DNA of 64,000 bases from Alphaproteobacteria bacterium (GTDB lineage Bacteria > Pseudomonadota > Alphaproteobacteria > SHNJ01), in NCBI GenBank assembly GCA_004295055.1, contig SHNJ01000031.1, positions 72,802 through 136,801 on the forward strand, read 5' to 3'. Shown piece by piece: positions 5,353 through 28,508 of the stretch (its first letter is position 1; each line of letters starts with the position of its first letter). The position numbers were made by a program, and so were the translations under genes. The notes beneath the pieces were generated by a model, which was not told the DNA's origin, did no database searches, and worked only from the letters and a program-made list of their open reading frames with translations.

Positions 5353-7148
5353 TCTGCCGGGTGTCCTATTTCAGACGCATTTTCAGTGCAATCTGTCTGT
5401 GGTCCGTTTTTCTGCGCAGTTTCGCATACAATTGTACCATCTGCTGGTGCTGATACTACGTCTTGTCCAGCCGGCAATCCAACAGGAGTGTATGTAGTTG
5501 GTCCTGGATCAACAGAAACTATAGTTTTTGCCGCTGGATCCCAATTGTAAGCCCAATTGGCATGATAATTGGCTAGACCGTGCACGCCAGTGTGTAATAA
5601 TTCAGGATATGTCTGGCTGCAATCTGCAGAATTATTAAGCAAAGTTACAGCCGCATCCGTTTTGCAGTTGGCTGAACTGCGTTCCGGATAAGTGTAAGTA
5701 CGGTCCCGCGCTTGCTGCGAGTTCGATGATAAATAGCAGTAAAATTGATTGGTATTTGGGGAATAGCCTACCACTTGGTGGGCTAACGGTCCGTCACCGT
5801 TGGCCAGAGAGCATGACTCTTCCCATCTGCCATAGGTAGTATCGTTCGCATTCACGCCTTCACAGACGAAAGTGTTGCTGGTCGCGGTTGTTGCGTCCCA
5901 AACAATCTTTTTACCTTCAGGGCATGGCGTTGGGCCGTTTGATGGATTTGGCGGTCTGGAATTTAACAATGTCCACCCACCGGCGCAAATTAGACTGCCA
6001 TCCCGCAATATGATCACGCCTTTACTGCGCGTACCGGGAAAATATGGATGATTATCATAATAACGTTGTGGGCATTCAAAATTGGCTAAACGAGTCATAA
6101 TATCATTCGGTAAAGCCGGATTTGGCCAGGTGCCGTCGGCCGCTACCGGAGAGACCGCATCGTAATATTCATCTACCGCGTACATCGATACGATTTGCCG
6201 GTTTACGTTGTCATAGGTCTCTGTGTTGACTTTTGCTTCGCGAATTTCGATGTCGGCACAGCTCATCCCGTTATTGATAGTTCCATCATTATTGGTGCCG
6301 CGCGAATTCAGGGCGGTTCCAACGGTACAATTTTGAGTTTCATTGCTGCCTGGCGCGGCGGCCAATCCCAGAACATTTCTTTCGCAACGGAACCGGGCTG
6401 GCAAAGTTTCCGCGGTATTGCCATCGCCGTCCTCATCGTTGACATCCACAGCTTGAGGTTTGAATATCATTTCTTCGCCGGCAGGACAGGCGCTTTCGCT
6501 AAGCGTGGTATTTTCCGTTTGCGAACTGCGGATCCATTTCAATGCCTGTGCCGGCGTTACATTGATGTATTTGCTGTTATCGCTTGTTACGCCAGCAGCG
6601 GCAGCGCTGCAAGTCATCATATGATCAGGATATTTGTTTAGAATAAGGGTAAATAATATCGGCGGATTGGCGGGTGCTGGAATATACCCATTTGTGCTGC
6701 TATAGCCGGCTTCTACCGGATAATATGGACAATAACGCATATATCTACGCAAGCTATCTGGCCGCAGTGGGGCCATTTGACGCAAGTTTCTCGGCAATTT
6801 ACCGCCATAAGCATAGGTAGGATTATTGCCTTCCAAAAGAGGAGTGGTAATAGTCGCATCGGAAGTAGTATCGCTGTTATCAGGAAATACGGCTGCAATT
6901 GGATGCACTCTCCCGGTGCTGCGGATATTGTCGCTGGAGGCCCGCGCAATGCTAGAAGCCAATACATTCAACAATGTGTCGTCGGTTATTTTCTCAGCAG
7001 ATTGGCGATTATCTTTTAATGCATTAATGTTCGGCGTAAAGATAGCAGCATTGGCCAGCATGATTAGAACGATAAAAAGCAATAAATGCGATACCATCCC
7101 GCGCTGGCGATTTTGAATGTTATGATATGGTTTCATTCTAAATCTCAT
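5349..7148 (-). CDS. Large cysteine-rich secreted or membrane-anchored protein with prepilin-like leader (no Glu+5)
   Basis: 599 aa. N-terminus is a basic leader ending in QRG|M followed by about 20 hydrophobic residues. About 25 Cys and many N-x-T/S. Third gene of a tightly packed three-gene minus-strand array. Confidence 0.55.
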   Translation of the reverse strand: MRFRMKPYHNIQNRQRGMVSHLLLFIVLIMLANAAIFTPNINALKDNRQSAEKITDDTLLNVLASSIARASSDNIRSTGRVHPIAAVFPDNSDTTSDATITTPLLEGNNPTYAYGGKLPRNLRQMAPLRPDSLRRYMRYCPYYPVEAGYSSTNGYIPAPANPPILFTLILNKYPDHMMTCSAAAAGVTSDNSKYINVTPAQALKWIRSSQTENTTLSESACPAGEEMIFKPQAVDVNDEDGDGNTAETLPARFRCERNVLGLAAAPGSNETQNCTVGTALNSRGTNNDGTINNGMSCADIEIREAKVNTETYDNVNRQIVSMYAVDEYYDAVSPVAADGTWPNPALPNDIMTRLANFECPQRYYDNHPYFPGTRSKGVIILRDGSLICAGGWTLLNSRPPNPSNGPTPCPEGKKIVWDATTATSNTFVCEGVNANDTTYGRWEESCSLANGDGPLAHQVVGYSPNTNQFYCYLSSNSQQARDRTYTYPERSSANCKTDAAVTLLNNSADCSQTYPELLHTGVHGLANYHANWAYNWDPAAKTIVSVDPGPTTYTPVGLPAGQDVVSAPADGTIVCETAQKNGPQTDCTENASEIGHPAD

Positions 7149-8705: not shown

Positions 8706-10238
8706 TTACCTATATATACATTTAAATTTCTTGTTGGTTTCATCCCAACTGACCATTTGGTGTCCGTTGCAAGAACTGCTGGGCGTAACTCTTGTCAATA
8801 ATTCAAACCTATCCAGGCATACATAATTGGTGCCGTCGTGCATGATAAAATCACCCGCTCTGCAAGATGTACGGGTATCGCTATATGGAATGATCCAATT
8901 GCGCGGTTCTTGAGTGTTATTGCTTTCCAAACATTGCGTATTGTTAGTAACCGTCTGGAATTCCAATATTTGATTTGGCTGGCAGGTTTGCTTGACCTCG
9001 AAACTTAAGTTCCCGGCAAAACAGAATAATTTTCCGCGATCGAATACGATGTATGGCCGTCCGGAACAATTGCTGCCGCTTAATAAGCTGCTTGGCATGC
9101 CGAGGCAACGCAAGGTGCCATCGCGGCTTTGGTACAAGGCTTTGAATTGTCCGCCGGATGCTTGGAAATCGCAGCTGCTTGCCAACAGCGGAATGGATAA
9201 GCTTACGCTTGGCGGACCAATTTCATCGCCATACGAAGAAAGACGATCACACCGGAAACTGTAATTGTCGTTGGCCACGCTCGATAACGCGCCAATGGCG
9301 TACCCGCGATAACAGATGCCGGCGGCCAAACGGCCCATATTGATATTCTCCGGCACTTGATTGGCCAATTGATCGACAACCCGGCAACCTAAAGTGCCAT
9401 CGGCATTCAAAGCCAGGCGTTGTGAATCCAAACAGCGGCGTAAACCATGCGAAGAATAATCCTGATTCACAAAATTCATGTAATTGTCGCGGCAGTTCCA
9501 GCTATGCTCTCCGGTGGCATTGCCATCGCCATCCTGCACATTGGTGTATTCCAAAGTTTGCAAGGCCGTACAGGTCGGAACGCCGTTATGCAACAAAGCG
9601 CGGCGATTGGCATTGGCGTGTTCCAACACTTCGCCGTATTTGATAAGTCTAATTTGGTCGTCGCTGCCGTTCACGGGGGTTTCATTCAAAGCATAATTGC
9701 AGGTATACTCAGGCGTACCGTTTTGTCCGTAACTGATAATTGCAAATACAGATTGTTTCATAAGCAGCGTTGTATTAGCTTGAACCTCGCGCCGTCCATT
9801 AGCAACATATGGTGGTACTATATCTTGAAGATTGATAGAACAAATTCGGAAGTCTCTACCGTAAGCATCCTTTCCGATGGTATCTCGCAAATCTACTTCT
9901 TGATTGTTAATAGTTGTCAATAGAGGTTCTATAAAACCCATAGCAGATTGTTCCCACTGCTGCGTATCACCTTCTGGATTAGGTTGAGTTTTGGTGTAAT
10001 ACATGCGCGGCAATTCAAGATAACGATCCCCATCAATATTGCTAATCTTGTTAGCAAGAATATATTCCGCTAATCGGTCTATGTTCTTTTTGGTATTTAA
10101 ATCGCTTTGTGTGGTGCCTACTTTCTGCGCAAGGCCAGCGGTCAGCGTGATCAGCGTGCCCAGCATCGCGACCGACGCGACAAGAGTGGCGATATATGCC
10201 CCGCCAATAAAGCCAGATTGTGATTTAAAAATTTGCAC
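8706..10238 (-). CDS. Large cysteine-rich secreted or membrane-anchored protein with prepilin-like leader; first gene of the array
   Basis: 510 aa. Leader MQIFKSQSG|FIGGAYIATLVASVAMLGTLITL. AT-rich promoter-like region upstream (10239-10518). Confidence 0.55.
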   Translation of the reverse strand: MQIFKSQSGFIGGAYIATLVASVAMLGTLITLTAGLAQKVGTTQSDLNTKKNIDRLAEYILANKISNIDGDRYLELPRMYYTKTQPNPEGDTQQWEQSAMGFIEPLLTTINNQEVDLRDTIGKDAYGRDFRICSINLQDIVPPYVANGRREVQANTTLLMKQSVFAIISYGQNGTPEYTCNYALNETPVNGSDDQIRLIKYGEVLEHANANRRALLHNGVPTCTALQTLEYTNVQDGDGNATGEHSWNCRDNYMNFVNQDYSSHGLRRCLDSQRLALNADGTLGCRVVDQLANQVPENINMGRLAAGICYRGYAIGALSSVANDNYSFRCDRLSSYGDEIGPPSVSLSIPLLASSCDFQASGGQFKALYQSRDGTLRCLGMPSSLLSGSNCSGRPYIVFDRGKLFCFAGNLSFEVKQTCQPNQILEFQTVTNNTQCLESNNTQEPRNWIIPYSDTRTSCRAGDFIMHDGTNYVCLDRFELLTRVTPSSSCNGHQMVSWDETNKKFKCIYR

Positions 10239-10518: not shown

Positions 10519-11139
10519 ATGGCGCAAGCAAATTTTGGATTAACCGCTGTTGCAGCTATGGGCGCGGTAACGGCTTTTGGTATTGTGCCAGCCAACGCGG
10601 ATATTTGGCTGCATCAGGGTACCAATAACACTAGTTTTGCCACATCGGAAATGATGACAGGAAATGTTACTGGTGTTCAAGTAAATATATCGGGGGACAA
10701 TTTGTGGGCATTTACGGCTCGTGCAACAAGTCAGTATATTACTGTTACCTCTGGTTTTTCAAACCAACCAGGTATGTTTGCAGGGTTTGACATGTTTAGT
10801 AATCCATTACCAGTAGGTTCTGGTTATAATGACGTGGATCAAACAGGCATAAATATGACTATGAATATTGGTGCTCAGAATGTTGGTCAACTAATTACCC
10901 TAGTTTTTGCTAATTATGGTATGGTTCCACTCAGCAATGGATCGGATTTGTATGACGTTGGAAGCTCTGGACAAATTAATCCATTGTTTATGGGTGCATG
11001 GAATGGCACAGGGGGTCAGAATCAATTTGGCGTCGAAACTCGCGTATACGAAATTACTGGCATTACCGGTGTTCCAGCTCCGGGTGTGTTGACCTTGGCT
11101 ATGGCTGGCGGTTTATTGGCCGCGCGTCGCCGCCGCTAA
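10519..11139 (+). CDS. Secreted protein with PEP-CTERM-like C-terminal sorting tail
   Basis: RBS GGGAGAGAGAAATG. Signal peptide …GIVPANA|D. C-terminus GVPAPGVLTLAMAGGLLAARRRR is a P-x-P, hydrophobic helix, Arg-cluster arrangement. Paralog of 11365-11985. Confidence 0.65.
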   Translation: MAQANFGLTAVAAMGAVTAFGIVPANADIWLHQGTNNTSFATSEMMTGNVTGVQVNISGDNLWAFTARATSQYITVTSGFSNQPGMFAGFDMFSNPLPVGSGYNDVDQTGINMTMNIGAQNVGQLITLVFANYGMVPLSNGSDLYDVGSSGQINPLFMGAWNGTGGQNQFGVETRVYEITGITGVPAPGVLTLAMAGGLLAARRRR

Positions 11140-11195: not shown

Positions 11196-11364
11196 ATGTG
11201 CGCACGAATAATTAATACTATCGTATGATTATAATATAATTATACTAATATGAAATAAAATTAGCAATATAATTGCAAGGATGGCTAAGAATCATTTTGC
11301 CAACCAAATGGTAAGTGGATTATAAATGCTTACTTCAAAAACTACTTTTTTCGTGGAGAGAAAA

Positions 11365-11985
11365 ATGGTCCGAGCAAATTTTGGAATGATTGCCGCCTTT
11401 ACCGCGGCCACCGCTTTCGGCACACAAGCGAATGCAGATATTTGGGAACAACATGGCAGCGACAACACCGCTTTTGCGACATCGGAAAGAATGACCGGCC
11501 GCGAAATTGACGGAATTGAGTACAGTGTTACTGGCGATAATTTATTTGCCTTTACTGGCGTTGCAAATAGTCGATTTATTACCATTATTTCCCCTGCATC
11601 TAACCAGCCTGGTATTGTGTATGTCCTGGACAAAGATGGAAAACCATTTCCAGTAGGTTCAGGTTATAATGACATTACACAAGAGGGCGTCGATATGATT
11701 ATCGATATTGGCGATGCCAATGTCGGTAAAGAAATCACTTTCGTATTTGGTAATTACGGCACGTTGGCGCAAAATGGCGAAACTCCGCTTTTTAATGATT
11801 ACGAATGCGGCCAAATCGATCCAGATGTGGTTGCGACATGGACTCTGACTGGTGGTCAAAATCAATTTGGTTCCGAAACTCGTGTTTGTTTCTTCGGCGA
11901 GGGAGAAGTTCGCGGTGTGCCAAAAGTAAGCACCACGACGGCGACGGCAGCAGCAAGAGCCAGAGCCACGCGCTGTTGCGACTAA
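11365..11985 (+). CDS. Secreted paralog of 10519-11139 with degenerate (Thr/Ala-rich) C-terminal tail
   Basis: Start moved to MVRANFG… (RBS GGAGAGAAAAATG, matching its paralog). Shared blocks are ANFG…TAFG…ANADIW, PVGSGYND and TGGQNQFG.ETRV. C-terminus is VPKVSTTTATAAARARATRCCD. Confidence 0.6.
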   Translation: MVRANFGMIAAFTAATAFGTQANADIWEQHGSDNTAFATSERMTGREIDGIEYSVTGDNLFAFTGVANSRFITIISPASNQPGIVYVLDKDGKPFPVGSGYNDITQEGVDMIIDIGDANVGKEITFVFGNYGTLAQNGETPLFNDYECGQIDPDVVATWTLTGGQNQFGSETRVCFFGEGEVRGVPKVSTTTATAAARARATRCCD

Positions 11986-12000
11986 CAATTAGATAGAATA

Positions 12001-12034
12001 AAAAAAGCCCGGTTTAATCCGGGCTTTTTTATTG
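12001..12034. terminator. Bidirectional rho-independent terminator
   Basis: AAAAAAA-GCCCGG-TTTAAT-CCGGGC-TTTTTTATT. It lies between two convergent genes (11365-11985 on + and 12048-12428 on -). Confidence 0.75.
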
Positions 12035-12047
12035 GGAGTATTTAACC

Positions 12048-12428
12048 TTAGCTTTCATAATTATCATTCGCGAACATGGCGGCGACGCCCGCACCGAAAT
12101 GATTTTCGATGCGGTAATATTGAATTTCCCGGTCGTTAAAATAATTTTGTTTTTTTAGCAAATTTTGCAGCAACGATTGCTTGCGGCGGTATTCGCGGTA
12201 CGCCTTGGCGATCAGGCGCGGGATCGCCTCGGAAATATCGACGATGTTTTTCGCGCCGAATCCCGCAACCGGCATTTCCGCTTGCCACATTCTGTAATGC
12301 CGCAAAGTTTGCAACATCCAATACCGCAGCAATTGAATCTCAGCGCGCATGGCGCAAATCAGCATTTTTGTCTGGCGCGGATTGGCGGGTACAAAATAAA
12401 AACCCGGCCCGGCGAATTCTTGGTTCAT
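12048..12428 (-). CDS. Small protein of unknown function; paralog A of 14172-14540
   Basis: 126 aa with RBS AGGGAGAGC. The C-terminal 43 aa and about 150 nt are near-identical to 14172-14540 (…[47 protein letters not shown]). Transcribed divergently from an XRE regulator. Confidence 0.6.
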   Translation of the reverse strand: MNQEFAGPGFYFVPANPRQTKMLICAMRAEIQLLRYWMLQTLRHYRMWQAEMPVAGFGAKNIVDISEAIPRLIAKAYREYRRKQSLLQNLLKKQNYFNDREIQYYRIENHFGAGVAAMFANDNYES

Positions 12429-12606
12429 AAAAAGCTCTCCCTAAATATTAATTTTTGTTGGTTACGAGGGGTAAAATAGGCCTAAATGGTTAATGAATGG
12501 TTAATTTATAGATAGAAATCATAAAAAATATTACTAATATTCATTTTTTTTATGATTTATCTTGATAATGGGATTCAGGCCTTCTAAAACAAAGCAGGGT
12601 AAGACT
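12429..12606. promoter_or_regulatory. Divergent AT-rich promoter region with GGTTAAT direct repeats (candidate operator)
   Basis: TGGTTAATGAATGGTTAAT at 12487-12505 lies between divergent genes. An analogous GGTTAAT…GTTAAT is in the paralogous region 14754-14772. Confidence 0.35.
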
Positions 12607-13251
12607 ATGACTTTGGATGCTTCTCAAATCCGCGCCGCACGCGCCTTGTTGGACTGGACAATCGAAGATTTGGCCAAAATTACCGGCTTGAGCAAGGATT
12701 CCATCAAAAATGTAGAGCGTGGGCATACTCAACCCCGTATAAATACCCGAATTGTTATAGAAGAAGCTTTTGAAAAAGCAGGCATCGAATTTTTGCCGGG
12801 TTCTGGCGTGCGCAAGAAAAATAATTTAATAACGACCTTAACCGGCGAATACGCCAATCGGCAATTGCTGGATGATGTGTATGCAACCCTTGTGGCTCGG
12901 GAAAATGCGTGTGTCTATATTACCGGCGTCAAGGAAACACAAAGCATCGATAGTGTGGATTATGAATATTTGGAAAAACATATTCAACGCTTATTGAAAG
13001 CGAATATTAAAGAAAAATTGATTGTTGAAGAAGGCGATTCCACTTTTATAGCGCCTTCATACAGCTATCGGTGGATAGCAGAACAATATTTTGAGAATGT
13101 ACCCATCCAAGTTTATGGCGATAAAATCGCCTTTGTGGATTGGGGGCCGCCGGAGCAAATCGTTATCATTCAAAACAAAGGATTTGCCATGGCTATGCAG
13201 AAACTGCTGGATTTCGCATGGCAAAACTGCGCCGTGCCTAAAGGCTTGTAA
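12607..13251 (+). CDS. XRE-family helix-turn-helix transcriptional regulator with uncharacterised C-terminal domain
   Basis: Start set to MTLDASQIRAARALLDWTIEDLAKITGLSKDSIKNVERG (HTH). Same length as, and colinear with, paralog 14937-15584 (conserved EEGD…YRW…VY.DK.A). Confidence 0.6.
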   Translation: MTLDASQIRAARALLDWTIEDLAKITGLSKDSIKNVERGHTQPRINTRIVIEEAFEKAGIEFLPGSGVRKKNNLITTLTGEYANRQLLDDVYATLVARENACVYITGVKETQSIDSVDYEYLEKHIQRLLKANIKEKLIVEEGDSTFIAPSYSYRWIAEQYFENVPIQVYGDKIAFVDWGPPEQIVIIQNKGFAMAMQKLLDFAWQNCAVPKGL

Positions 13252-13252
13252 A

Positions 13253-14119
13253 ATGATGCATATATCCGGAAAGCTAAAGCAAATCGTATCCTTAGGGCCA
13301 GAAAATTTCGACTTTCTGAAAGCGGCCAATAACAACGACAGTTATCAATTGTCGCCTACATATTATTTGTTTACCGGAAGAAAAGGTTTATGGGTGTTGG
13401 AACAGGATGGGCAAGCGGCTTTAATTGCTAAGCATCCTAACTTAGAAGACGAATTGTTGGTATTTTATCCTAATGGATATTGCCCAAATCTAGAGCATCA
13501 AGTTTTACATCATGTTCCGCGTAACAGCCGATTAAAAGCTGCAAGACTAGCCGTTTGCGCAAATTCTAATCTCAATGCAGTTATGGATGAGGAACTATTC
13601 TTAGATTGGCGTTACCCAGTCTGCATACTGGATACTGCGTATGTTGGAAAACTGCGCGGCAGGTTATTAGAGGATGTAAAGAACAATTATAATAGAGCCG
13701 CTAGAACGATTTGTAGAATTGAGGCTTACAATCCGGCTGCGCATAAAGATCGCATGAGAGAATTGATTCAACAATGGCATCGCCCGGAAGCGCATGATGG
13801 ATATGAAGGGCTATTAAATATTATGGAACGAATGCCGGGAAATTTCGGCTTAATCGCTCTAACAGAAGAATCTATCGCGGGGTTTATTCACTGGGAAATG
13901 CCATGGAAACCGGGGAGTCCGGCTAATTCTCTGGCCTTGATTGTTGACAAAAGCATTAAAGGATTAAGCGAATTTATGATGGTGGAAATGTGCCGCGCGT
14001 TGGTGCAGACCGGATGCCTTGCTGTCAATATAGGTGGGTCTGAAACCGAAAGCCTTCATTATTTTAAAAGCAAATTTAATCCAAAAATGGTGGATCTGCG
14101 TAATTATAATTATGCTTAA
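13253..14119 (+). CDS. Stand-alone DUF2156 / phosphatidylglycerol-lysyltransferase C-terminal-like (FemXAB/GNAT-fold) protein; putative aminoacyl-tRNA-dependent transferase
   Basis: Start re-set to the ATG 1 nt after the regulator stop (MMHISGKLKQ…); the track's 13091 start overlaps the regulator. C-terminal signature …GSETESLHYFKSKFNPKMVDL matches the FK.KF.P motif that ends MprF C-domains. Confidence 0.5.
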   Translation: MMHISGKLKQIVSLGPENFDFLKAANNNDSYQLSPTYYLFTGRKGLWVLEQDGQAALIAKHPNLEDELLVFYPNGYCPNLEHQVLHHVPRNSRLKAARLAVCANSNLNAVMDEELFLDWRYPVCILDTAYVGKLRGRLLEDVKNNYNRAARTICRIEAYNPAAHKDRMRELIQQWHRPEAHDGYEGLLNIMERMPGNFGLIALTEESIAGFIHWEMPWKPGSPANSLALIVDKSIKGLSEFMMVEMCRALVQTGCLAVNIGGSETESLHYFKSKFNPKMVDLRNYNYA

Positions 14120-14171
14120 AGATTAATACTTTTTAAGTAGTACAATGCGCGGCGAGGCAGCTAATATGGCG

Positions 14172-14540
14172 TTAGGCATAATTATCGTTCGCGAACATGG
14201 CGGCGACGCCCGCGCCGAAATGATTTTCGATGCGGTAATATTGAATTTCCCGGTCGTTAAAATAATTTTGTTTTTTTAGCAAATTCTGCAACAACGATTG
14301 CTTGCGGCGGTATTCGCGCAACGATTGGTTGATCAATCCCTGCACTTTGCTTTGCATATTGGCGATTTTTTTTGCCGGCAATGCGCCGTCATTGTTCATT
14401 TCCGCGCGCCAGGATTTATAATTCTGCAAAGTTTGCAGCATCCAATAACGTAGCAAGCGGATTTCCGCTTCCATCGCCTCGGCTAAATTTTGACTTTTGC
14501 CTTTGGTGTTGGCATTGGTTTTATTTTGTTGTGCTGGCAT
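14172..14540 (-). CDS. Small protein of unknown function; paralog B of 12048-12428
   Basis: 122 aa with RBS AAGGGAG. C-terminus identical to paralog A. Preceded on the same strand by a 47-aa ORF. Confidence 0.6.
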   Translation of the reverse strand: MPAQQNKTNANTKGKSQNLAEAMEAEIRLLRYWMLQTLQNYKSWRAEMNNDGALPAKKIANMQSKVQGLINQSLREYRRKQSLLQNLLKKQNYFNDREIQYYRIENHFGAGVAAMFANDNYA

Positions 14541-14560
14541 ATCTCGCTCCCTTAACTCCG

Positions 14561-14704
14561 TTAGGCCGCTTTTTGTACTTTGCGCATTTCTTCAACTACG
14601 TTCAGCGCAAAATAGGGGCCATATTTAATTTCCAAATACTCATAAATTTCTTCTTCGCTCATCATCGCGTAATTTGGTTTGGTATTTTGATTCGCGTAAT
14701 CCAT
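14561..14704 (-). CDS. Small ORF (47 aa) not in the supplied track: MDYANQNTKPNYAMMSEEEIYEYLEIKYGPYFALNVVEEMRKVQKAA
   Basis: Read by hand on the minus strand. ATG at 14704, stop TAA at 14561-14563. It ends 20 nt before the RBS and ATG of 14172-14540, an operon-like spacing. Acidic/aromatic, no signal peptide. Confidence 0.35.
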   Translation of the reverse strand: MDYANQNTKPNYAMMSEEEIYEYLEIKYGPYFALNVVEEMRKVQKAA

Positions 14705-14710
14705 CTCTAG

Positions 14711-14936
14711 TCCCTTAGTTCCCGTTGTTGGCAACGAGAGAATAGGATCATAAGGTTAATCAAAAGTTAATTCAATAGAAAAAATATCTAATAACGATAT
14801 ATTTTATGCCTTTTATAGATGGTATTATACACAAATTATTGATATATAATGATAATATTCCATCCAGAAAAATAAAAAATGACGATATTTTTTATATGTT
14901 CTTGCAATATGTTTTATATCTTGTTATGCAGAAAAC
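14711..14936. promoter_or_regulatory. Divergent AT-rich promoter region with GGTTAAT-N6-GTTAAT repeat (candidate operator)
   Basis: GGTTAATCAAAAGTTAATT at 14754-14772. Same position relative to the regulator gene as in cassette 1. Confidence 0.35.
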
Positions 14937-15584
14937 ATGATAGACGCCAAACAAATACGCGCCGCGCGCGCTTTGCTGAATTGGTCGCGGGAGGAGCTGG
15001 CCGAACAAACGGGGATTTCCGTCCCCGCGCTTGCTCGCGCCGAAACGGGCGAATCGCAATTGCGCACGACTAGCGCCGAGAAAATCAAATCATCGTTGGA
15101 GCAGGCGGGTGTAATTTTTACGGATGGCAGTGGTGTGAAGCTCAAAACGGATTTGGTACAAATTTATGAAGGTGAAAATTGCTATCTAAAATTGCTGGAA
15201 GATTTTGAAGACCTGAATGTTAAAGGAGAAAAAGAAATTCTGTTCAGTTCTGCTTCTGAAAAAAGATCAACGGATGAGGTTATTGAGAAAACGCGTCTTC
15301 TAAGAAAAAAAGGCATTAAGATGCGCTTTCTTTTGGAGGAAGGCGACACATACATAATGGGTGACCTTTCAGAATATAGATGGATGCATAAAAGTTTATT
15401 TTCCAAGGGTGACGTAAAGCTAGTGTATGCGGATAAAGTCGCTTATTTGGTTAGTTGGATGGAAACACCTCGTGTTGTAGTTGTTTCTGAGAAAAACATT
15501 GCTGAAGAAAATCGAAGAGCGTTTGAATTTATTTGGAATATATCGAAGAAACCGACGCACAGCGATGCGGACATTTCATATTGA
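14937..15584 (+). CDS. XRE-family HTH transcriptional regulator; paralog of 12607-13251
   Basis: MIDAKQIRAARALLNWSREELAEQTGISVPALARAETG HTH. C-terminal domain colinear with its paralog. Confidence 0.6.
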   Translation: MIDAKQIRAARALLNWSREELAEQTGISVPALARAETGESQLRTTSAEKIKSSLEQAGVIFTDGSGVKLKTDLVQIYEGENCYLKLLEDFEDLNVKGEKEILFSSASEKRSTDEVIEKTRLLRKKGIKMRFLLEEGDTYIMGDLSEYRWMHKSLFSKGDVKLVYADKVAYLVSWMETPRVVVVSEKNIAEENRRAFEFIWNISKKPTHSDADISY

Positions 15585-15592
15585 GGCGCAGA

Positions 15593-16309
15593 ATGTTCGA
15601 AATCAAAATTAAAACGTCAAAAAATCAAATCGCCTTATATAATCGCTGTGTATTGGGCGTAAGTCTAGATAGCAATAATCACAGAGGTGATCGTCTGGCG
15701 GCATTGGTAGAATGGGCTAATGATAATTTTAAAGATTGCATCGTCGATCTTACCGATACTTTGCATCGGTATAATCACATGGCGGATCTAAAATTGTCGG
15801 AAAACGATGCCAGATTGAAAGCCCATATTCAGGGCGATCAGTGGCTGCAAGAATCATATCACATATTATCCAATTTCAAGATTCCATATTGCATTCTGCG
15901 GTGGGATGCATGGAAATATAATCATAAGTTTATAAGGTATCTGCATATGTTTGAAAGCGCATTCGCGGTCGATAAAAATTTCCGTGAAGCTGTTATGTAT
16001 GATGTTAATTTATTTTTAGGCAGAAGAAAAGCTCTTGGCAGTCCAACCACGGAGCAATTATGCGTTACCTATTTATTGGAAGAACTTGCTGGTCAATCCT
16101 TATTGTATGAACAATTTCCAGCTGCTGAGATTTATCCGGGTAAACAACAAAAAAGCTTTGGATTAGTGCGTGCTGGGAAAGTGCCTAATGTGCCAACTGG
16201 TTTGCAGAATTCCTGTTTTGTAAGCCTGTATCTGCATGACAAGAGTGCGGGGTTATTTGGTTCCGCCAATGACGATGCAGATTTTGCTGATTTAAGAAAA
16301 ATGGGTTGA
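15593..16309 (+). CDS. Cyclodipeptide synthase (CDPS)-like tRNA-dependent enzyme
   Basis: Start set to the ATG 9 nt after the regulator stop (MFEIKIKT…, 238 aa). Motifs colinear with AlbC-type CDPS are: LGVSLDSNN (the G-x-S catalytic-Ser loop); LVEWANDNF…IVDLTDT (compare LLQWAGQRF…VVYVDT); TYLLEE (the Y…E pair); and SLYLHD (the late Tyr). Confidence 0.65.
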   Translation: MFEIKIKTSKNQIALYNRCVLGVSLDSNNHRGDRLAALVEWANDNFKDCIVDLTDTLHRYNHMADLKLSENDARLKAHIQGDQWLQESYHILSNFKIPYCILRWDAWKYNHKFIRYLHMFESAFAVDKNFREAVMYDVNLFLGRRKALGSPTTEQLCVTYLLEELAGQSLLYEQFPAAEIYPGKQQKSFGLVRAGKVPNVPTGLQNSCFVSLYLHDKSAGLFGSANDDADFADLRKMG

Positions 16310-16464
16310 TACTTCTGAAACCTTGATTTCAAAGCCTGAACACACTCCTATCCATATATTTCTCCACATATTGCCCCGCACTCTAAATCTCCTTGGAATC
16401 CGGCTTATTTTAAGGCATCTTAAGGGCCGCTTTCCTATATCCAGCCCTTATCCCGATTACCCGC

Positions 16465-18072
16465 ATGAAAACCTTATCCAGCCAGATCAATACAAAATCC
16501 GAAGATTTCAAAACCAACGCCGCGCATATGCAATCGCAGATTGACGATATGAACGAAAAACTGGCGCGGATTCAGCTGGGCGGATCCGAAGACGCGCGCA
16601 AAAAACATACTGCGCGCGGCAAATTACTCACGCGTGACCGGATCAATCATTTGCTCGATCCCGGCTCGGCATTTTTAGAATTCAGCGCCTTTGCCGGATA
16701 TAATATGTACGAAGATGATGTGCCCGCCGCCAGTATCATTACCGGCATTGGCCGCGTCAATGGCCAGGAATCGGTCGTCATCGCCAACGATCCGACGGTT
16801 AAGGGCGGAACCTATTACCCGATGACGGTGAAAAAACATTTGCGGGCGCAAGACATCGCCGCGCAAAACAACTTGCCTTGCATTTATCTGGTCGATTCGG
16901 GCGGCGCGTTTTTGCCGATGCAGGATGACGTGTTTCCAGACCGCGATCATTTCGGCCGTATTTTTTATAACCAGGCGCGCATGTCTTCCCGACGTATTCC
17001 GCAAATAGCGGTGGTGATGGGTTCTTGCACCGCAGGCGGCGCCTATGTTCCCGCCATGTCGGACGAAGTGGTGATTGTTAAAAACCAAGGGACTATTTTC
17101 CTGGGCGGCCCGCCACTGGTCAAGGCCGCGACGGGCGAGGTTGTTACGGCGGAGGATCTGGGCGGCGCGGACGTGCATTGCCGCACGTCGGGCGTTGCCG
17201 ATCATATGGCGGATCATGATCGTCATGCGCTGGAAATCACCCGCAATATTGTTGGCAATCTAAACCGTTCGCCGCAAACCAAATTAAATCGTATCTCGCC
17301 GGAATTGCCGAAATACGATCCGGCGGAATTGGTTGGCATTATTCCCAAAGACACGCGCAAGCCGTTCGATATCCGCGAAATCATTGCGCGTATCGTCGAT
17401 GGCAGCCGGTTCGATGAATTCAAGGCGCTGTATGGCACGACCATCGTTTGCGGATTTTCCTATATCATGGGTATGCCGGTCGGTATTATCGCCAACAACG
17501 GCATTCTGTTTTCCGAAGCCGCGTTAAAGGCGACGCATTTTATTGAATTATGCAGTCAGCGCGGAATTCCATTGGTGTTCCTGCAAAATATCACCGGATT
17601 CATGGTTGGCCGCAAATATGAAAATGACGGCATCGCCAAAGATGGCGCGAAAATGGTGACCGCAGTGTCTTGCGCCAATGTGCCGAAATTTACCGTGCTG
17701 ATTGGCGGATCGTTCGGCGCTGGCAATTATGGAATGTGCGGGCGGGCCTTTAACCCGAATTTATTATGGATGTGGCCGAATTCGCGGATTTCCGTTATGG
17801 GCGGCGAACAAGCGGCGAATGTGTTATGGCAGATCCGCGCGGACAGGGCAGAGGCCGAAGGCAAAAAACCAACCGCCGCCGAAGCCGAGCAATTCAAATC
17901 GCCAATCCGCCAGCAATATGAAAATCAAGGCCATCCTTATTATGCTTCCGCGCGTTTGTGGGACGACGGTATTTTATCGCCAACCGACACGCGCATGGCG
18001 TTGTCGATGGGAATTTCAGCCTCGCTGAACGCTCAGTGGGACGATACACGATTCGGCGTATTTAGAATGTAG
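16465..18072 (+). CDS. mccB: Methylcrotonyl-CoA carboxylase carboxyltransferase (beta) subunit
   Basis: 535 aa acyl-CoA carboxyltransferase fold (two crotonase-like halves). Adjacent to liuC, mccA and hmgL. Confidence 0.8.
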
Positions 18073-18081
18073 GAGATTGCG

Positions 18082-18876
18082 ATGACCAATTCCGTTTTAA
18101 TTTCCAAAGATTCCCCCGGCATTGCCACCATTACGATGAACAAGCCGGATGTGCACAATGCATTTGATGAAAGTTTAATTGCCGATCTTACAAAGGCGGT
18201 AAAACAATTGAATGCCGATTCGGATGTGCGGGTCGTCATTCTGGCCGCGAATGGCAAAAGTTTTTCGGCCGGCGCGGATTTGGGCTGGATGCAAAAGATG
18301 TCCGGTTATTCGGAAGAAGAAAATCTGCGCGATGCACGGTTGCTGGCCGAATTAATGTCGTCGTTGGACCAAATGACCAAACCCACGATTGCGCGCGTTC
18401 AGGGATCGGCGTTTGGCGGCGGCGTTGGGCTGATCGCTTGCTGCGATATTGCGGTATCGGTTTATGATGCCAAATTTGCATTGTCCGAGGCGCGTTTAGG
18501 CCTTATTCCGGCGGTGATTTCGCCTTATGTGGTATCGGCCATCGGTGCGCGCAATGCGCGGCGTTATTTCTTAACCGGTGAACGATTTGATGCAGAACGC
18601 GCATTGGATATGGGGCTTGCGCATCAATTATGTTATGCGGATGAACTCGATAGCGCGGTCGAAGAAATTGTCGATGCGTTATTGGAATGCGGACCCGGCG
18701 CGCAAACGGCATGCAAATATTTAATCCGCCAGGTGCAGTCGGGCAAAAACAATTCTGAATTGATCGAATGGACGGCGCAGCAAATCGCCAAAATCCGCGC
18801 CAGCCACGAAGGCAAGGAAGGCATTTCCGCATTCTTGGAAAAACGCGCGCCAAAATGGTTGAAAAAACGGGCGTAG
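18082..18876 (+). CDS. liuC: Methylglutaconyl-CoA hydratase (enoyl-CoA hydratase/crotonase family)
   Basis: 264 aa crotonase fold (…SFSAGADLGWM…GSAFGGGVGLIACCDIAV…). Position between mccB and mccA. Confidence 0.75.
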   Translation: MTNSVLISKDSPGIATITMNKPDVHNAFDESLIADLTKAVKQLNADSDVRVVILAANGKSFSAGADLGWMQKMSGYSEEENLRDARLLAELMSSLDQMTKPTIARVQGSAFGGGVGLIACCDIAVSVYDAKFALSEARLGLIPAVISPYVVSAIGARNARRYFLTGERFDAERALDMGLAHQLCYADELDSAVEEIVDALLECGPGAQTACKYLIRQVQSGKNNSELIEWTAQQIAKIRASHEGKEGISAFLEKRAPKWLKKRA

Positions 18877-18886
18877 TATTTAAATC

Positions 18887-21046
18887 CTATTTACTAGGCC
18901 TAGAAGACTGCATGCGTTTTACCCGGGCCATATGTTCTGCCCTGGTGCCGCGTATAAGGCTATCGATAGTGCTGGTATAACGGGCCGTAAACTTTTGGGG
19001 ATCGGGAGTGTAGTATAAGCCATTTCTATTGGCTAACGCCGCGATTTTGCCTAGATCGCAGGTTTCCGCGAAAGGCTCTTCCAAAAAAGCTTGTATTGAT
19101 GCGATAGACCTCATTTCCAAAGACATTTGCAGCAATTTCGCAAGTACTGCTAAAGAAGCCAGGCTATGTTCCGAATAGGCAGTAAGTTGGGGCCGTCTCA
19201 TCTGCTGGGGTATTAGAATTTGTTCCATGCAATCGTATAAATCCATCACCGCATCCTTGTTAGGTGCAGGCGCGAATATTTGCTGTAAAACATGTCTCGG
19301 AATTGCATAGCCTTTCGGTACAACCCAATTTTCCAGCGACCAGGAAGAAATAGAAGCATTGGCGCGGTCAATTTCTTCCCGGTTGTGGGCTTGACCTGTA
19401 ATCTGCGCGTGTGCCAGGGAAACTGTGCGATAAGTTCTTCTGTAAATAGGTTTCAGCGCTGTCTGGATGCAAACGTCAACACTGTACTTTAGTACAAGAT
19501 ACAAAAACTTCATTTGTCTATCGCTAACGCAGACTCCGTATCCGGACGCTTTGGCCGCTGCACATAAATCATTGAATTGTATCGGTGCGGAAAAGGGCCT
19601 TGCGGCGTGTGCCGCGAAACTGTCAGGTCCATGGGGATCGAATGTCATAAGACGATACGCCATCGCCCAATCTTCTATACTGAAGGATAAAGGAAACTGA
19701 GTATGTTTATGGCTATATATATTTGCAAACCCATGCGGGAAAAAGGCGAGCGCAATGGCGTGGGCTGCCGTCACGATAGCGTTGTCTTTACCCTTGATAA
19801 GGTTTTCTAAATAGGATGATCGGATAAAAAAACCCGGCGGAATTGCTAAACCCGGTACCAAAGTTTGCGCCAATGGAATGTATTGCGTTGGAAATGGCTT
19901 GCGCAAGTCGGCAAAAGGATCGGTGGCTGGATCTTCGGCCAGATGGATATCGATATCGTATAACAGCACCCGTTCTTTCGGCAGAACATCTTTGATGAGC
20001 GGCATTTTTGGCGCATCCAAGGGGGGTGTGGCGGCTTGGATGATTGCGGTGGGCAGGGCCGGTTGCGCTATATCCGCGCGCTGCGCCTGGTGTTGATACA
20101 AACCGTGCGCTTCCAAGATTGCGCGCATGTTTTTGCGCAGCAAATGTTTTACTTTTCCGAATGCTTCACCCACATCGCTGTCGGCCGTTATTCCGGTGAT
20201 TTGACGCAAAGCTTTGGCGCGGATGTCGATAATGGTTGTATCCCGGCGATAAGGTTGAGCAAAGTTTTTTTGATCCGGGCGGATTCCAAATTCCAATATC
20301 TTGTCCAGGATAGCCAATTCTGTCGGGCTGAAAACTGGTCTCGCACCCAAGCGCAATATACCGGCCAATTCTTGCATCAATTGATTGATACTATTCCAAT
20401 ATCCACTATGGTTTTCGTATTCCATGGGCGGCAACAATAATAACCCGGTTAATGCCAGGGCATAGCCGGTTTCCGCTTGTTGGCGCGCCTCGGGTGTAGA
20501 AAGATCGGCTAAATCGTACCCGCGCAATCGCAACCCGATGGGAATAGTGGGGCAGGATTTATCATGTGTCGTAAGTTCATTCAGAACAGGCAAATGAATA
20601 TGGCGGTCGACAGCAGTGGCTGGTTCAGGTTCTTCGGCATCGGTCAGATTCACGAATCCGAGGCCGGATAGAAAATCCGTCCGTGTTTTTCCGATTTCCA
20701 GAAGATCCCTGTATTTCTTCAGATCAAATTTTTCAGCAGTGTCGGCGGTGATATAACCGGTAACGGCTAAGGCGATTGCGAAATTTTTCAACGCGCCAGG
20801 ATCTACAATGGTAATACGTCCGCCTTTGGGGTGGTATTTCGTCAGAACAATTCCATTGGTATCATAAACCTTAAAATTATGGCCATCGCGCACATGCTGG
20901 AAACCCAATCCAACGCATAGTTTTTCAAATTGCGCCTGGTCGATTTCCGTTACGCTGCTGCGGGAGAAAATAGCCGTTAACAGGCCGCGTTGGCCGTCGC
21001 CCAAACCGGCAATAACGGCATGATCGATTGGTGTTATTCTTGTCAT
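18887..21046 (-). CDS. Large hypothetical protein (719 aa) with HicA/YcfA-like N-terminal region; inserted inside the liu cluster
   Basis: No global family recognised. Residues about 40-95 (LGFQHVRDGHNFKVYDTNGIVLTKYHPKGGRITIVDPGALKNFAIAL) follow the HicA pattern GF..vR..GsHh.f…g..vtvP.H.gk.l..gtl..Il. Confidence 0.45.
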   Translation of the reverse strand: MTRITPIDHAVIAGLGDGQRGLLTAIFSRSSVTEIDQAQFEKLCVGLGFQHVRDGHNFKVYDTNGIVLTKYHPKGGRITIVDPGALKNFAIALAVTGYITADTAEKFDLKKYRDLLEIGKTRTDFLSGLGFVNLTDAEEPEPATAVDRHIHLPVLNELTTHDKSCPTIPIGLRLRGYDLADLSTPEARQQAETGYALALTGLLLLPPMEYENHSGYWNSINQLMQELAGILRLGARPVFSPTELAILDKILEFGIRPDQKNFAQPYRRDTTIIDIRAKALRQITGITADSDVGEAFGKVKHLLRKNMRAILEAHGLYQHQAQRADIAQPALPTAIIQAATPPLDAPKMPLIKDVLPKERVLLYDIDIHLAEDPATDPFADLRKPFPTQYIPLAQTLVPGLAIPPGFFIRSSYLENLIKGKDNAIVTAAHAIALAFFPHGFANIYSHKHTQFPLSFSIEDWAMAYRLMTFDPHGPDSFAAHAARPFSAPIQFNDLCAAAKASGYGVCVSDRQMKFLYLVLKYSVDVCIQTALKPIYRRTYRTVSLAHAQITGQAHNREEIDRANASISSWSLENWVVPKGYAIPRHVLQQIFAPAPNKDAVMDLYDCMEQILIPQQMRRPQLTAYSEHSLASLAVLAKLLQMSLEMRSIASIQAFLEEPFAETCDLGKIAALANRNGLYYTPDPQKFTARYTSTIDSLIRGTRAEHMARVKRMQSSRPSK

Positions 21047-27464: not shown

Positions 27465-28421
27465 ATGAAACAAACCATTTTGGCCCTGACGCCAGAAAAA
27501 ACCAAAGGACTATTGTATTTATTGGGAGCGTGTCTGATTTGGGCCGGCTGGTGGGTATTTAATCGTTACGGCGTCACCAATGGCGTTGATCCATTCGATA
27601 TTGTTGCAATCCGGTTGACGGTGGCGGGTTTGATTTTGCTGCCAATTTTGGTGCGTCGCGGTCTTGGTACGGTTTGGTGGAAGGCGATTCTTATCGCTTG
27701 TTTGGGCGGATTGATTAATTCGCTGGCCTCTATCTATGGCGTGAAATTTGCGCCAGCAAGCCATGGTGCAACCTTGATGCCGGGCATGGTGCCGATTTTC
27801 ACCGCATTGCTCGCTTGGTTGATATTGAATGAAACTATCACTGTGGTGCGGTGGTTAGGGATTGGCTTGGTGATTGGTGGTGCCTTTTTAATCGGTTTTC
27901 CGAATTTAACGCCGGGCAACGACAATCAATGGATCGGGCATTTATTATTTATCGGGGCCTCTTTGTCGTGGTCTTTTTATACGGTATGCGTGCGGTGGTG
28001 GCGTATTGATGCCTGGCATGGCGTAGCCTTAATTGCCGTTGTATCGATGATTTTATATTTGCCAATTTACAGTTTTACTTTTGGCGGCAGAATTTTTGAT
28101 TATCCGGTGTCTACCATTTTGTTCCAAGGATTATATCAAGGCATTCTGACATCGATTTGCGCGATTTTATTTTTCAATTCCGCAATTGCAATTTTTGGCG
28201 CTTCGGGTGCTGGCGCGGCAGGCGCGTTAATTCCAGTGTTAACGGTGATTATGGCCGCTATTTTCCTGGGCGAGATTCCAAGTTGGATCGAAGTTTTGGG
28301 AATCTTTGTGGTCATCGGCGGTATCCCATTTGCCATGGGATTAATTGGCAGCCGCGATGGCAAAGTCCACGACGATATCGAAGATAAAAGCCGCGGGACC
28401 AAGCTTGATACGAAGGCTTAA
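27465..28421 (+). CDS. EamA/DMT-superfamily transporter
   Basis: 318 aa with 10 predicted TM helices and two EamA-like halves. Confidence 0.7.
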   Translation: MKQTILALTPEKTKGLLYLLGACLIWAGWWVFNRYGVTNGVDPFDIVAIRLTVAGLILLPILVRRGLGTVWWKAILIACLGGLINSLASIYGVKFAPASHGATLMPGMVPIFTALLAWLILNETITVVRWLGIGLVIGGAFLIGFPNLTPGNDNQWIGHLLFIGASLSWSFYTVCVRWWRIDAWHGVALIAVVSMILYLPIYSFTFGGRIFDYPVSTILFQGLYQGILTSICAILFFNSAIAIFGASGAGAAGALIPVLTVIMAAIFLGEIPSWIEVLGIFVVIGGIPFAMGLIGSRDGKVHDDIEDKSRGTKLDTKA

Positions 28422-28508
28422 AAACTCATACATAATCATTGGTTTAGTTAACTTGACGGTATAGCATTATACCATTAAGATACGATCCTATCTTTATAGG
28501 ATCCATTA

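Follow-up and report, generated by a model that had tools for sequence, protein, structure and literature searches.

We analysed a window of 64,000 nucleotides (contig SHNJ01000031.1) from an alphaproteobacterial metagenome-assembled genome (MAG), and describe two tandem cassettes located at positions 12048-16309 of this window (Table 1). Each cassette consists of a small gene on the minus strand, a divergent gene encoding a regulator of the XRE type with a helix-turn-helix (HTH) domain, and an enzyme gene tightly coupled to the regulator gene. We named the small proteins S1 and S2, the regulators R1 and R2, and the enzymes E1 and E2; a further small open reading frame (ORF), X57, lies upstream of S2. 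A preliminary description, made from the sequence alone, had listed six ORFs in two like cassettes, and all six are present at the coordinates given there. It had placed 1 nt between R1 and E1, which is correct, and 9 nt between R2 and E2, where the gap is 8 nt. No further copies of the S, R, E or X57 genes were found elsewhere in the window. The G+C content is 40-42% across 10 to 16.3 kb, compared with 47-50% in the surroundings.

Over their full length, R1 and R2 share 34% identity (E 2e-36), and each carries an HTH_3 domain at its N-terminus (2.1e-08 for R2). The presence of this Cro/C1-type helix-turn-helix domain assigns R1 and R2 to the XRE family. The C-terminal domain (C-domain) is common to both proteins and belongs to no Pfam family, in agreement with the preliminary description, which had called it shared and novel. 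A fold search assigned it to the phospholipase D (PLD)/Nuc-like alpha/beta folds, and a related fold is found in the effector part of TrmB. The catalytic motif HxK(x)4D of the PLD/Nuc superfamily is absent from the domain, and there is no conserved His/Lys/Asp triad among 23 family members. Across these 23 regulators, only F62, G67, V68, G80, R155, F162, Y170, F201 and W205 are invariant or nearly invariant. On these alignments, R ends in a phospholipase-D-like domain that is catalytically dead.

We considered two known regulator families and a phage origin for R1 and R2. TrmB membership was rejected, since the regulators gave no TrmB-related Pfam match at E up to 1 and only the fold of the effector domain is similar; TrmB (PDB 2f5t, 3qph, 5bpd) also differs from R by a winged helix in place of the XRE HTH and by an additional C-terminal subdomain. 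XRE-cupin membership was rejected because no cupin sensor domain follows the XRE domain. A viral structure library contained no match to the full regulator architecture, and no match at E <= 0.001. In two other genomes, three to six paralogous regulators are arranged in a row, and several of them have no enzyme partner (L043 600-5750, L077 1777-6675; numbers with the prefix L denote loci other than the window).

The preliminary description had further proposed that E1 is a DUF2156 protein, that E2 resembles cyclodipeptide synthases (CDPSs), and that the two enzymes are unrelated in sequence. All of this held. E1 matched PF09924 with 40.9 bits (curated cut-off 27.5) over profile positions 13-248 of 298, and a precomputed PF09924 match exists for 11 of 21 E1 homologues. 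Its predicted fold is the tandem-GNAT fold common to the MprF C-domain and FemX, and the closest structure is 2hqy, a standalone protein without assigned function. A single-sequence search of E1 against the PDB sequences returned nothing; E1 was placed by family profiles and by the fold search. Its family and fold alone lead us to predict aminoacyl-tRNA as the donor. E1 is a new member of a known family. Among the DUF2156/Fem-fold transferases (MprF C-domain, FemX/FemA, Sbb17), it is distinguished as a soluble protein without the membrane flippase domain of MprF. An assignment of E1 as a full MprF was rejected: the N-terminal multi-pass flippase domain is absent, the match to the soluble domain covers the 288 aa wholly, and an in-frame upstream extension would overlap R1.

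A regulator adjoins the enzyme in 8 of the 9 contexts of E1 homologues that we examined. At L089 (5694-7930), an E1 homologue without recognisable regulator has a 173-aa protein before it, and its neighbours include a Hachiman-type defence pair (HamA and a helicase) as well as a very large NTPase. Proteins of cluster c75 (140-170 aa, no Pfam match) accompany the DUF2156-type modules of five other genomes; the window contains none. In one of the five, L086, the c75 protein is followed by a formyltransferase, which hints at a small pathway.

E2 scored 36.3 bits against PF16715 (cut-off 27) and 62.5 bits against TIGR04539 (cut-off 45). The best-matching CDPS chains in PDB were 5ocd (3.5e-17) and 5mlq (1.6e-14), both of which we take to be XYP-type CDPSs. 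Residues Ser24, Tyr160, Glu164 and Tyr181 of E2 align with S37, Y178, E182 and Y202 of Snou-CDPS. In the numbering of Snou-CDPS, these four positions are almost strictly conserved in active CDPSs (PMC7566563). E2 also shows the XYP signature, with Tyr181-Pro182 corresponding to positions 202-203 and with Ser, not Asn, at +3 from the catalytic Ser (GVSLDS; position 40). A protein identical to E2 is named tRNA-dependent cyclodipeptide synthase at NCBI. By its profile matches and residues, E2 is a bona fide XYP-type CDPS with intact catalytic residues, and a new member of a known family. It is fairly isolated, with only four other clusters at 38-45% identity among 5.8 billion proteins. Like the described XYP CDPSs (PDB 5ocd, 5mlq, 5mlp; PMC7566563, PMC5816076), it passes the profile cut-offs and has the catalytic Ser/Tyr/Glu/Tyr and the Tyr-Pro pair; unlike them, it has no adjacent tailoring enzyme and is paired with a dedicated regulator. 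In the accessible part of a global survey of CDPS neighbourhoods, a pairing of regulator and CDPS is not mentioned (PMC5767969).

Table 1. Features of the two cassettes, in window positions unless a locus is named
Feature	Position	Strand	Description
Hairpin	12001-12030		Perfect stem between runs of A and T; identified by terminator scan and as inverted repeat I11
S1	12048-12428	-	ORF, 126 aa; small protein of a rare family, divergent from R1
S-side element, cassette 1	12470-12505		AATAGG..GGTTAAT-N4-GGTTAAT; also upstream of the regulator in L081, L082 and L084
Palindrome	12506-12568		Imperfect, 31-nt arms, 77% complementary, 1 nt between arms (inverted repeat I2); just upstream of R1
R1	12607-13251	+	ORF, 214 aa; XRE HTH at about residues 1-68 (12607-12812), PLD-like pseudo-enzyme domain (12813-13251)
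E1	13253-14119	+	ORF, 288 aa; soluble DUF2156 (LPG_synthase_C), tandem-GNAT aminoacyl-tRNA-transferase fold (predicted)
Swapped segment 1	12813-14181	+	R1 C-domain and E1; without DNA homology to the otherwise syntenic relative L081 (blastn)
S2	14172-14540	-	ORF, 122 aa; S1 paralogue, convergent with E1, divergent from R2
X57	14561-14704	-	ORF, 47 aa; upstream of S2, C-terminus -KAA
S-side element, cassette 2	14741-14771		AATAGG..GGTTAAT-N4-AGTTAAT; nearly identical upstream of the L081 counterpart of R2
R2	14937-15584	+	ORF, 215 aa; R1 paralogue, XRE HTH at about 14937-15173, then PLD-like domain
E2	15593-16309	+	ORF, 238 aa; predicted cyclodipeptide synthase, XYP subfamily
Swapped segment 2	15174-16384	+	R2 C-domain and E2; without DNA homology to L081 (blastn)
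c75 members	L002 7647-8168; L004 5352-5831; L022 5375-5797; L086 6040-6471; L090 4580-5029		Beside DUF2156-type modules of other genomes

A word-indexed protein search identified 57 full-length relatives of the regulators; when a single genome of each GTDB species was scanned, tblastn confirmed at least 471 places. Almost all hosts are alphaproteobacterial MAGs labelled Micavibrio, Pseudobdellovibrionaceae, Hyphomicrobiaceae, Rhodospirillales and similar. The best 80 of these places were analysed as loci. Downstream of 62 of the 73 full-length regulators there is an ORF of at least 150 aa on the same strand, starting between -41 and +239 nt from the regulator stop. The median gap between regulator and enzyme is 1 nt, and 13 pairs overlap by 4 nt (ATGA). 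The preliminary description had named homologous cassettes that always lack the enzyme as evidence that would speak against it, and had proposed a survey for co-occurrence of regulator and small protein; the homologous cassettes keep an enzyme partner, so that the pairing is real, and the S genes are confined to a small clade.

The enzyme partners belong to at least 10 unrelated classes, most of which are not tRNA-dependent. The most frequent are Methyltransf_33 (EgtD-like; 11), CDPS (10), a family with a weak formyltransferase signal (7) and DUF2156 (5), followed by class-I methyltransferase groups (5 and 3), GNAT groups (3 and 2) and Q_salvage-like proteins (2). Single cases include an aminotransferase, a formyltransferase, a GDSL hydrolase, an alpha/beta hydrolase, FAD/NAD-binding proteins and AAA ATPases. 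CDPS or DUF2156 proteins were found as 19 of 53 classified partners (~36%), so that about a third of the partners would be tRNA-dependent. Modules of the CDPS and DUF2156 types also occur singly (L085, L086, L053, L057, L040), and some regulators adjoin periplasmic binding-protein-like genes (cluster c62) instead of enzymes. In about 25 Micavibrio-like genomes (including L013, L017, L021, L029 and L031), the module occupies one syntenic site (dnaA-rpsT-fpg on one side and groEL-groES on the other, around position 6000 of the loci), and the enzyme class at this site differs from genome to genome.

In a neighbour-joining tree of 79 regulators, the regulators grouped by partner class, with R2 among the CDPS-linked and R1 among the DUF2156-linked members. 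We then compared the two halves of the protein. The nearest neighbour had the same partner class in 47 of 53 cases by the C-domain, compared with 22 of 53 by the HTH. Among pairs with HTH identity of at least 60%, the median C-domain identity was 50.5% for matching enzymes (n=48) and 34% for differing ones (n=227). In the extreme pair the HTH is 98% and the C-domain 39% identical; between a DUF2156-linked and an aminotransferase-linked regulator, the HTH is 90% and the C-domain 35% identical.

A close relative of the locus, L081, was found by a metagenome scan with a profile of five S sequences. Its gene order matches that of the window (S1', R1', enzyme, a PEP-CTERM gene, S2', X57', R2', enzyme, carboxylase), and its flanking methylcrotonyl-CoA-carboxylase-like protein is 95.5% identical to that of the window. 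Both L081 enzymes are EgtD-like members of Methyltransf_33 / PF10017 (1.4e-40 for the one scanned). By blastn, the window and L081 are homologous at 12168-12812, 14182-15173 and 16385-18884, and the two segments between these blocks have no homology. The breakpoints lie at about residue 68 of R1 and about residue 79 of R2, which is the junction of the HTH and the PLD-like domain in both cassettes. Compared with their L081 counterparts, the HTH is 80% and the C-domain 34-36% identical in R1, and the HTH is 90% and the C-domain 24-26% identical in R2. By their C-domains, the L081 regulators are nearest to other regulators linked to methyltransferases. Since homology breaks at the domain junction and resumes after the enzyme, the exchanged unit is the putative sensor domain together with the enzyme. 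At the level of these alignments, the comparison shows that the PLD-like domain and the enzyme gene move as one, and that what remains at the locus is the HTH with the intergenic control region and the small genes.

The small proteins S1 and S2 are 69% identical (E 1e-52). The preliminary description had noted an identical C-terminal run of 43 aa; the run is real and comprises 47 aa, the last 47 residues before the extreme C-terminus, with 4 synonymous nucleotide differences. At the DNA level, the genes are 93% identical over the 3' 159 nt, falling to 74% upstream of that block. The S family is rare, with 10 cluster representatives among 1.8 billion proteins in an exhaustive profile search. 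S1/S2 homologues were not found in 80 regulator loci from reference genomes, indicating that S is not a general part of the module. All S homologues with enough flanking DNA adjoin an R-E module: L081 has two copies, L082 is arranged as S-R-CDPS-S, L084 as R-DUF2156-S-R' and L085 as S-R-DUF2156. The exception is L083, a 4-kb contig with an S homologue on which no regulator was detected.

In other lineages, different small divergent genes lie upstream of the regulator, for example those of a ~55-aa family (c42/c99) followed by sm37- or c73-type proteins. No Pfam family was found for the S proteins, X57 or the small divergent genes of the other lineages. X57 has a counterpart at the equivalent position of L081 (84% identity), and it shares 44% identity with the C-terminal end of the protein encoded at L033 5306-5842. 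X57 may be related to the c42/c99 family, the profile comparison being suggestive only (hhalign P 5e-4, probability 31%). A reading of L033 5306-5842 as a fusion of S and X57 was not borne out, as the S-like part was not significant (P 0.008, probability 5%). The ~55-aa divergent proteins upstream of many regulators end in Ala-Ala or similar (-KAA, -MAA, -VAA; L030, L051, L068, L071, L073, L074, L079, L086, and X57 in the window). These ends are reminiscent of C-terminal degradation tags, which suggests that the small divergent proteins are unstable. Judged by their position, the small divergent genes are the likeliest outputs of the regulators.

We next describe the control regions. The hairpin beyond the 3' end of S1 is likely a bidirectional terminator closing S1 and the upstream PEP-CTERM-like gene, and it coincides with the only Rfam matches in the region, which are terminator-like and below threshold. 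The terminator scan found no terminator between R and E. The S-side elements of both cassettes contain two GTTAAT half-sites with 4-nt spacing and are candidate operator/promoter elements. A candidate operator for R1 is the palindrome that closely precedes the gene; AATCAT/ATGATT repeats related to this palindrome were found in L081 and L084. Upstream of R2 there are ACGATAT repeats. A sigma-70-like promoter at 14900-14936 (TTGCAA, 17 nt, TATGCA), conserved in L081 and L084, ends about 6 nt before the R2 start, so the R2 mRNA is possibly leaderless or near-leaderless. Upstream of the 23 regulators at the Micavibrio-like syntenic site, we found a conserved promoter-like TGGACA-17-TATAAG together with the element TTTACATAT.

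Taken together, the explanation that we favour, and that we regard as about evenly poised between right and wrong, is a ligand-matched pair of sensor and enzyme, in which the product of the enzyme is the preferred ligand of the PLD-like domain. The locus would then consist of a self-contained regulatory module present twice in tandem, and each copy would comprise a one-component factor R, a co-transcribed and probably translationally coupled enzyme E, and one or two small genes (S, X57) divergent from a shared control region. The PLD-like domain would serve as a ligand sensor matched to the chemistry of the partner enzyme, and the most likely ligand would be a small amino-acid-derived product, namely a cyclodipeptide for E2 and an aminoacylated compound for E1. 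The HTH would act on operators in the divergent intergenic region, and R would control its own R-E operon together with S and X57. The two cassettes would represent two orthogonal channels with no joint pathway, and their common use of aminoacyl-tRNA would be incidental.

Three observations favour a small-molecule ligand. One homologous domain pairs with at least 10 unrelated enzyme folds, which argues for a small molecule over binding of the enzyme protein. Almost every partner enzyme works on amino acids or activated amino acids, and the ligands could for this reason have an amino-acid core in common. In addition, the related fold in TrmB serves in its effector part. With a CDPS, no small ligand other than the product is plausible, and this suggests feedback or autoinduction. 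In logic, such a pair would resemble LuxI/LuxR and, most closely among characterised systems, the XRE-cupin regulators of Pseudomonas (ErfA, PsdR, PauR), which are local repressors of neighbouring metabolic genes (PMC7901475). These share with R an N-terminal XRE domain joined to a small-molecule-sensing domain, local action, and a large number of distinct regulator-plus-enzyme units. In R, however, the predicted sensor is PLD/Nuc-like rather than a cupin, the enzyme is immediately downstream and would be co-transcribed, and sensor and enzyme are exchanged together between close relatives.

Several points weigh against this explanation. Co-inheritance of the C-domain and the enzyme would be expected as well if the C-domain bound the enzyme protein itself. 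Few C-domain residues are conserved (G80, R155, F162, Y170, F201, W205), and no clear dyad or shared palindrome was found upstream of the 23 syntenic-site regulators. Of the 73 full-length regulators, 11 have no co-directional enzyme. The nearest-neighbour signal of the HTH is noisier than that of the C-domain because the HTH is shorter. The 80 loci are biased towards relatives of R1, and nearly all of the genomes are MAGs. Finally, the partner classes come from a simple mechanical ORF caller and BLAST clusters, with one representative scanned against Pfam per cluster.

A more far-reaching version, which we consider possible but rather doubtful, is that the modules form an unrecognised family of cell-cell signalling systems (pherotypes) in Micavibrio-like predators and other Alphaproteobacteria. 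The pseudo-PLD/XRE receptor would recognise the amino-acid-derived signal of the adjacent enzyme, for example a cyclodipeptide, an aminoacylated compound, an N-methylated betaine or an N-acyl/formyl amino acid. Swapping of receptor domain and synthase between close relatives would create private channels, two of which would lie in tandem in the window. In polymorphic quorum sensing (LuxI/LuxR; the agrBDC and comQXP pherotype regions), the synthase lies beside the receptor, the sensing part co-varies with it and the output part is conserved. The R-E modules resemble these loci in that the sensor half and the synthase are exchanged between close relatives and the output half is conserved. They differ in having no sequence or fold relation to LuxI/LuxR, Agr or Com, and in that the enzyme classes of the modules differ completely. 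No Pfam or NCBIfam match to a LuxI synthase or a LuxR autoinducer-binding domain was obtained, and the resemblance is in logic only.

Substrate sensing, in which R senses an incoming nutrient, xenobiotic or prey-derived compound and the neighbouring enzyme consumes this ligand in a metabolic or detoxification module, is in our view unlikely. The XRE-cupin regulators act in this way on neighbouring genes (PMC7901475). The partner repertoire (methyltransferases, GNATs, GDSL and alpha/beta hydrolases, FAD/NAD-binding protein, aminotransferase) resembles modifying or inactivating enzymes, and the c62 periplasmic binding-protein-like genes beside some regulators would also fit this reading. On the other hand, the substrates of a CDPS are two aminoacyl-tRNAs, which are implausible ligands for a pocket domain of 150 aa and are not condition-specific nutrients. 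EgtD-like enzymes and CDPSs are biosynthetic, and rapid turnover between close relatives, as at this locus, is seen more typically in social or conflict loci than in catabolic ones.

Quite unlikely, in our estimation, is a toxin-antitoxin-like or enzyme-sequestering pair, in which the C-domain of R binds the enzyme protein and neutralises or gates it, and the complex represses the operon; the enzymes, those that consume aminoacyl-tRNA among them, would then be growth-inhibiting effectors. The modules share with type II toxin-antitoxin operons that have XRE antitoxins the gene order (XRE gene first), the tight or overlapping junctions (gaps of 1-8 nt and frequent 4-nt overlaps) and the partner-matched variable C-terminal halves. 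There is also weak NCBIfam similarity, at the level of the HTH, to HipB-, MqsA- and Xre-type antitoxins; AAA_15/AAA_21 ATPases are among the partners, and one E1 homologue lies beside the Hachiman system. GNAT toxins that acetylate aminoacyl-tRNA are known. However, one homologous domain of 150 aa would need to bind at least 10 structurally unrelated enzymes, and the C-terminal halves of R are all of one homologous fold. The partners are ordinary biosynthetic families of 200-430 aa, and Pfam places both E1 and E2 in such families. PADLOC gave no match for E1, E2, S1 or X57, one marginal match for S2 (E 0.005) and matches for R at the HTH only; E has no match to a defence or toxin-antitoxin model. 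In addition, CDPSs are routinely over-expressed in E. coli for product analysis with no reported toxicity (PMC5816076, PMC7566563).

The preliminary description had proposed that the two cassettes form a coordinated pair of tRNA-using enzymes under paralogous regulators, yielding for example a cyclodipeptide and an aminoacylated product; as one joint pathway, this could mean a cyclodipeptide that becomes aminoacylated. Characterised members of both enzyme families use aminoacyl-tRNA, the cassettes are adjacent with nearly identical S C-termini, and 19 of the 53 classified partners are CDPS or DUF2156 proteins. Nevertheless, we found this idea improbable, and a coordinated pair defined by the use of aminoacyl-tRNA was not supported, in view of the diversity of the partner classes and of L081, which has methyltransferases in both slots. 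Single CDPS and DUF2156 modules exist elsewhere, and at the observed share of tRNA-dependent partners, chance alone gives two side by side in ~1/8 of tandem pairs. There are no shared tailoring or transport genes, and nothing links the product of E1 to that of E2. PLD-fold toxins exist, and a conserved N-terminal part followed by a C-terminal part and downstream gene replaced by recombination recalls polymorphic toxin loci, but a conflict locus of the CdiA-CT/CdiI type, with the variable C-domain of R as effector and the downstream gene as immunity or partner gene, is hardly credible given that the HKD catalytic residues are missing from the variable domains, all of which are mutually homologous, that a DNA-binding HTH stands at the N-terminus in place of a secretion or delivery domain, and that the downstream proteins are large enzymes, not small immunity proteins.

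Directly upstream of the cassettes, and within the same low-G+C stretch (40-42%), we found two paralogous proteins (10519-11139 and 11326-11985, both on the plus strand; 47% identical). The first ends in a PEP-CTERM-like sorting signal, and L081 has a PEP-CTERM protein (5449-6198) between its two cassettes. The two upstream proteins may be outputs or cargo of the same island. The island is flanked by two large ORFs without Pfam match, 8706-10238 (minus strand, 510 aa) and 18887-21046 (minus strand, 719 aa). The 510-aa protein is Cys-rich and has a hydrophobic N-terminal segment like a pilin-type or signal anchor. A second stretch of low G+C content (41%) lies at 28001-30000. E1 and S2 are convergent, and since each gene closes with codons for Asn-Tyr-Ala and a TAA stop, their 3' ends make up an inverted repeat of 14 nt (14106-14119, 14172-14185). 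The repeat could be coincidental or a remnant of the recombination that joined the cassettes. The window contains no tRNA genes, and no T-box, riboswitch or other Rfam family above threshold.

No description of this module was found in the searchable literature on XRE regulators with CDPS, DUF2156 or Micavibrio, consistent with the preliminary description, which had not recognised the arrangement. The whole module, with its XRE and dead-PLD regulator, its coupled variable enzyme and its exchange at the level of domains, is apparently undescribed, and is in kind a variant of known local units of sensor-regulator and enzyme. If the regulators are ordinary local metabolic regulators, they would extend the principle of the XRE-cupin proteins to a second sensor fold. 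If the favoured explanation is true, they would represent a new family of sensor domains, in which a dead phospholipase-D fold serves as the ligand receptor of an XRE regulator. The breakpoint at the domain junction would then be a natural experiment, revealing which half of the regulator reads DNA and which half matches the enzyme, and the system would be attractive for building orthogonal sensor/synthase pairs. CDPSs and soluble DUF2156 proteins, both mostly without a known biological role, would gain a regulatory context and a testable receptor. A two-gene rule, regulator then enzyme, would flag hundreds of unexplored pathways for small amino-acid-derived metabolites in uncultured Alphaproteobacteria and predatory bacteria.

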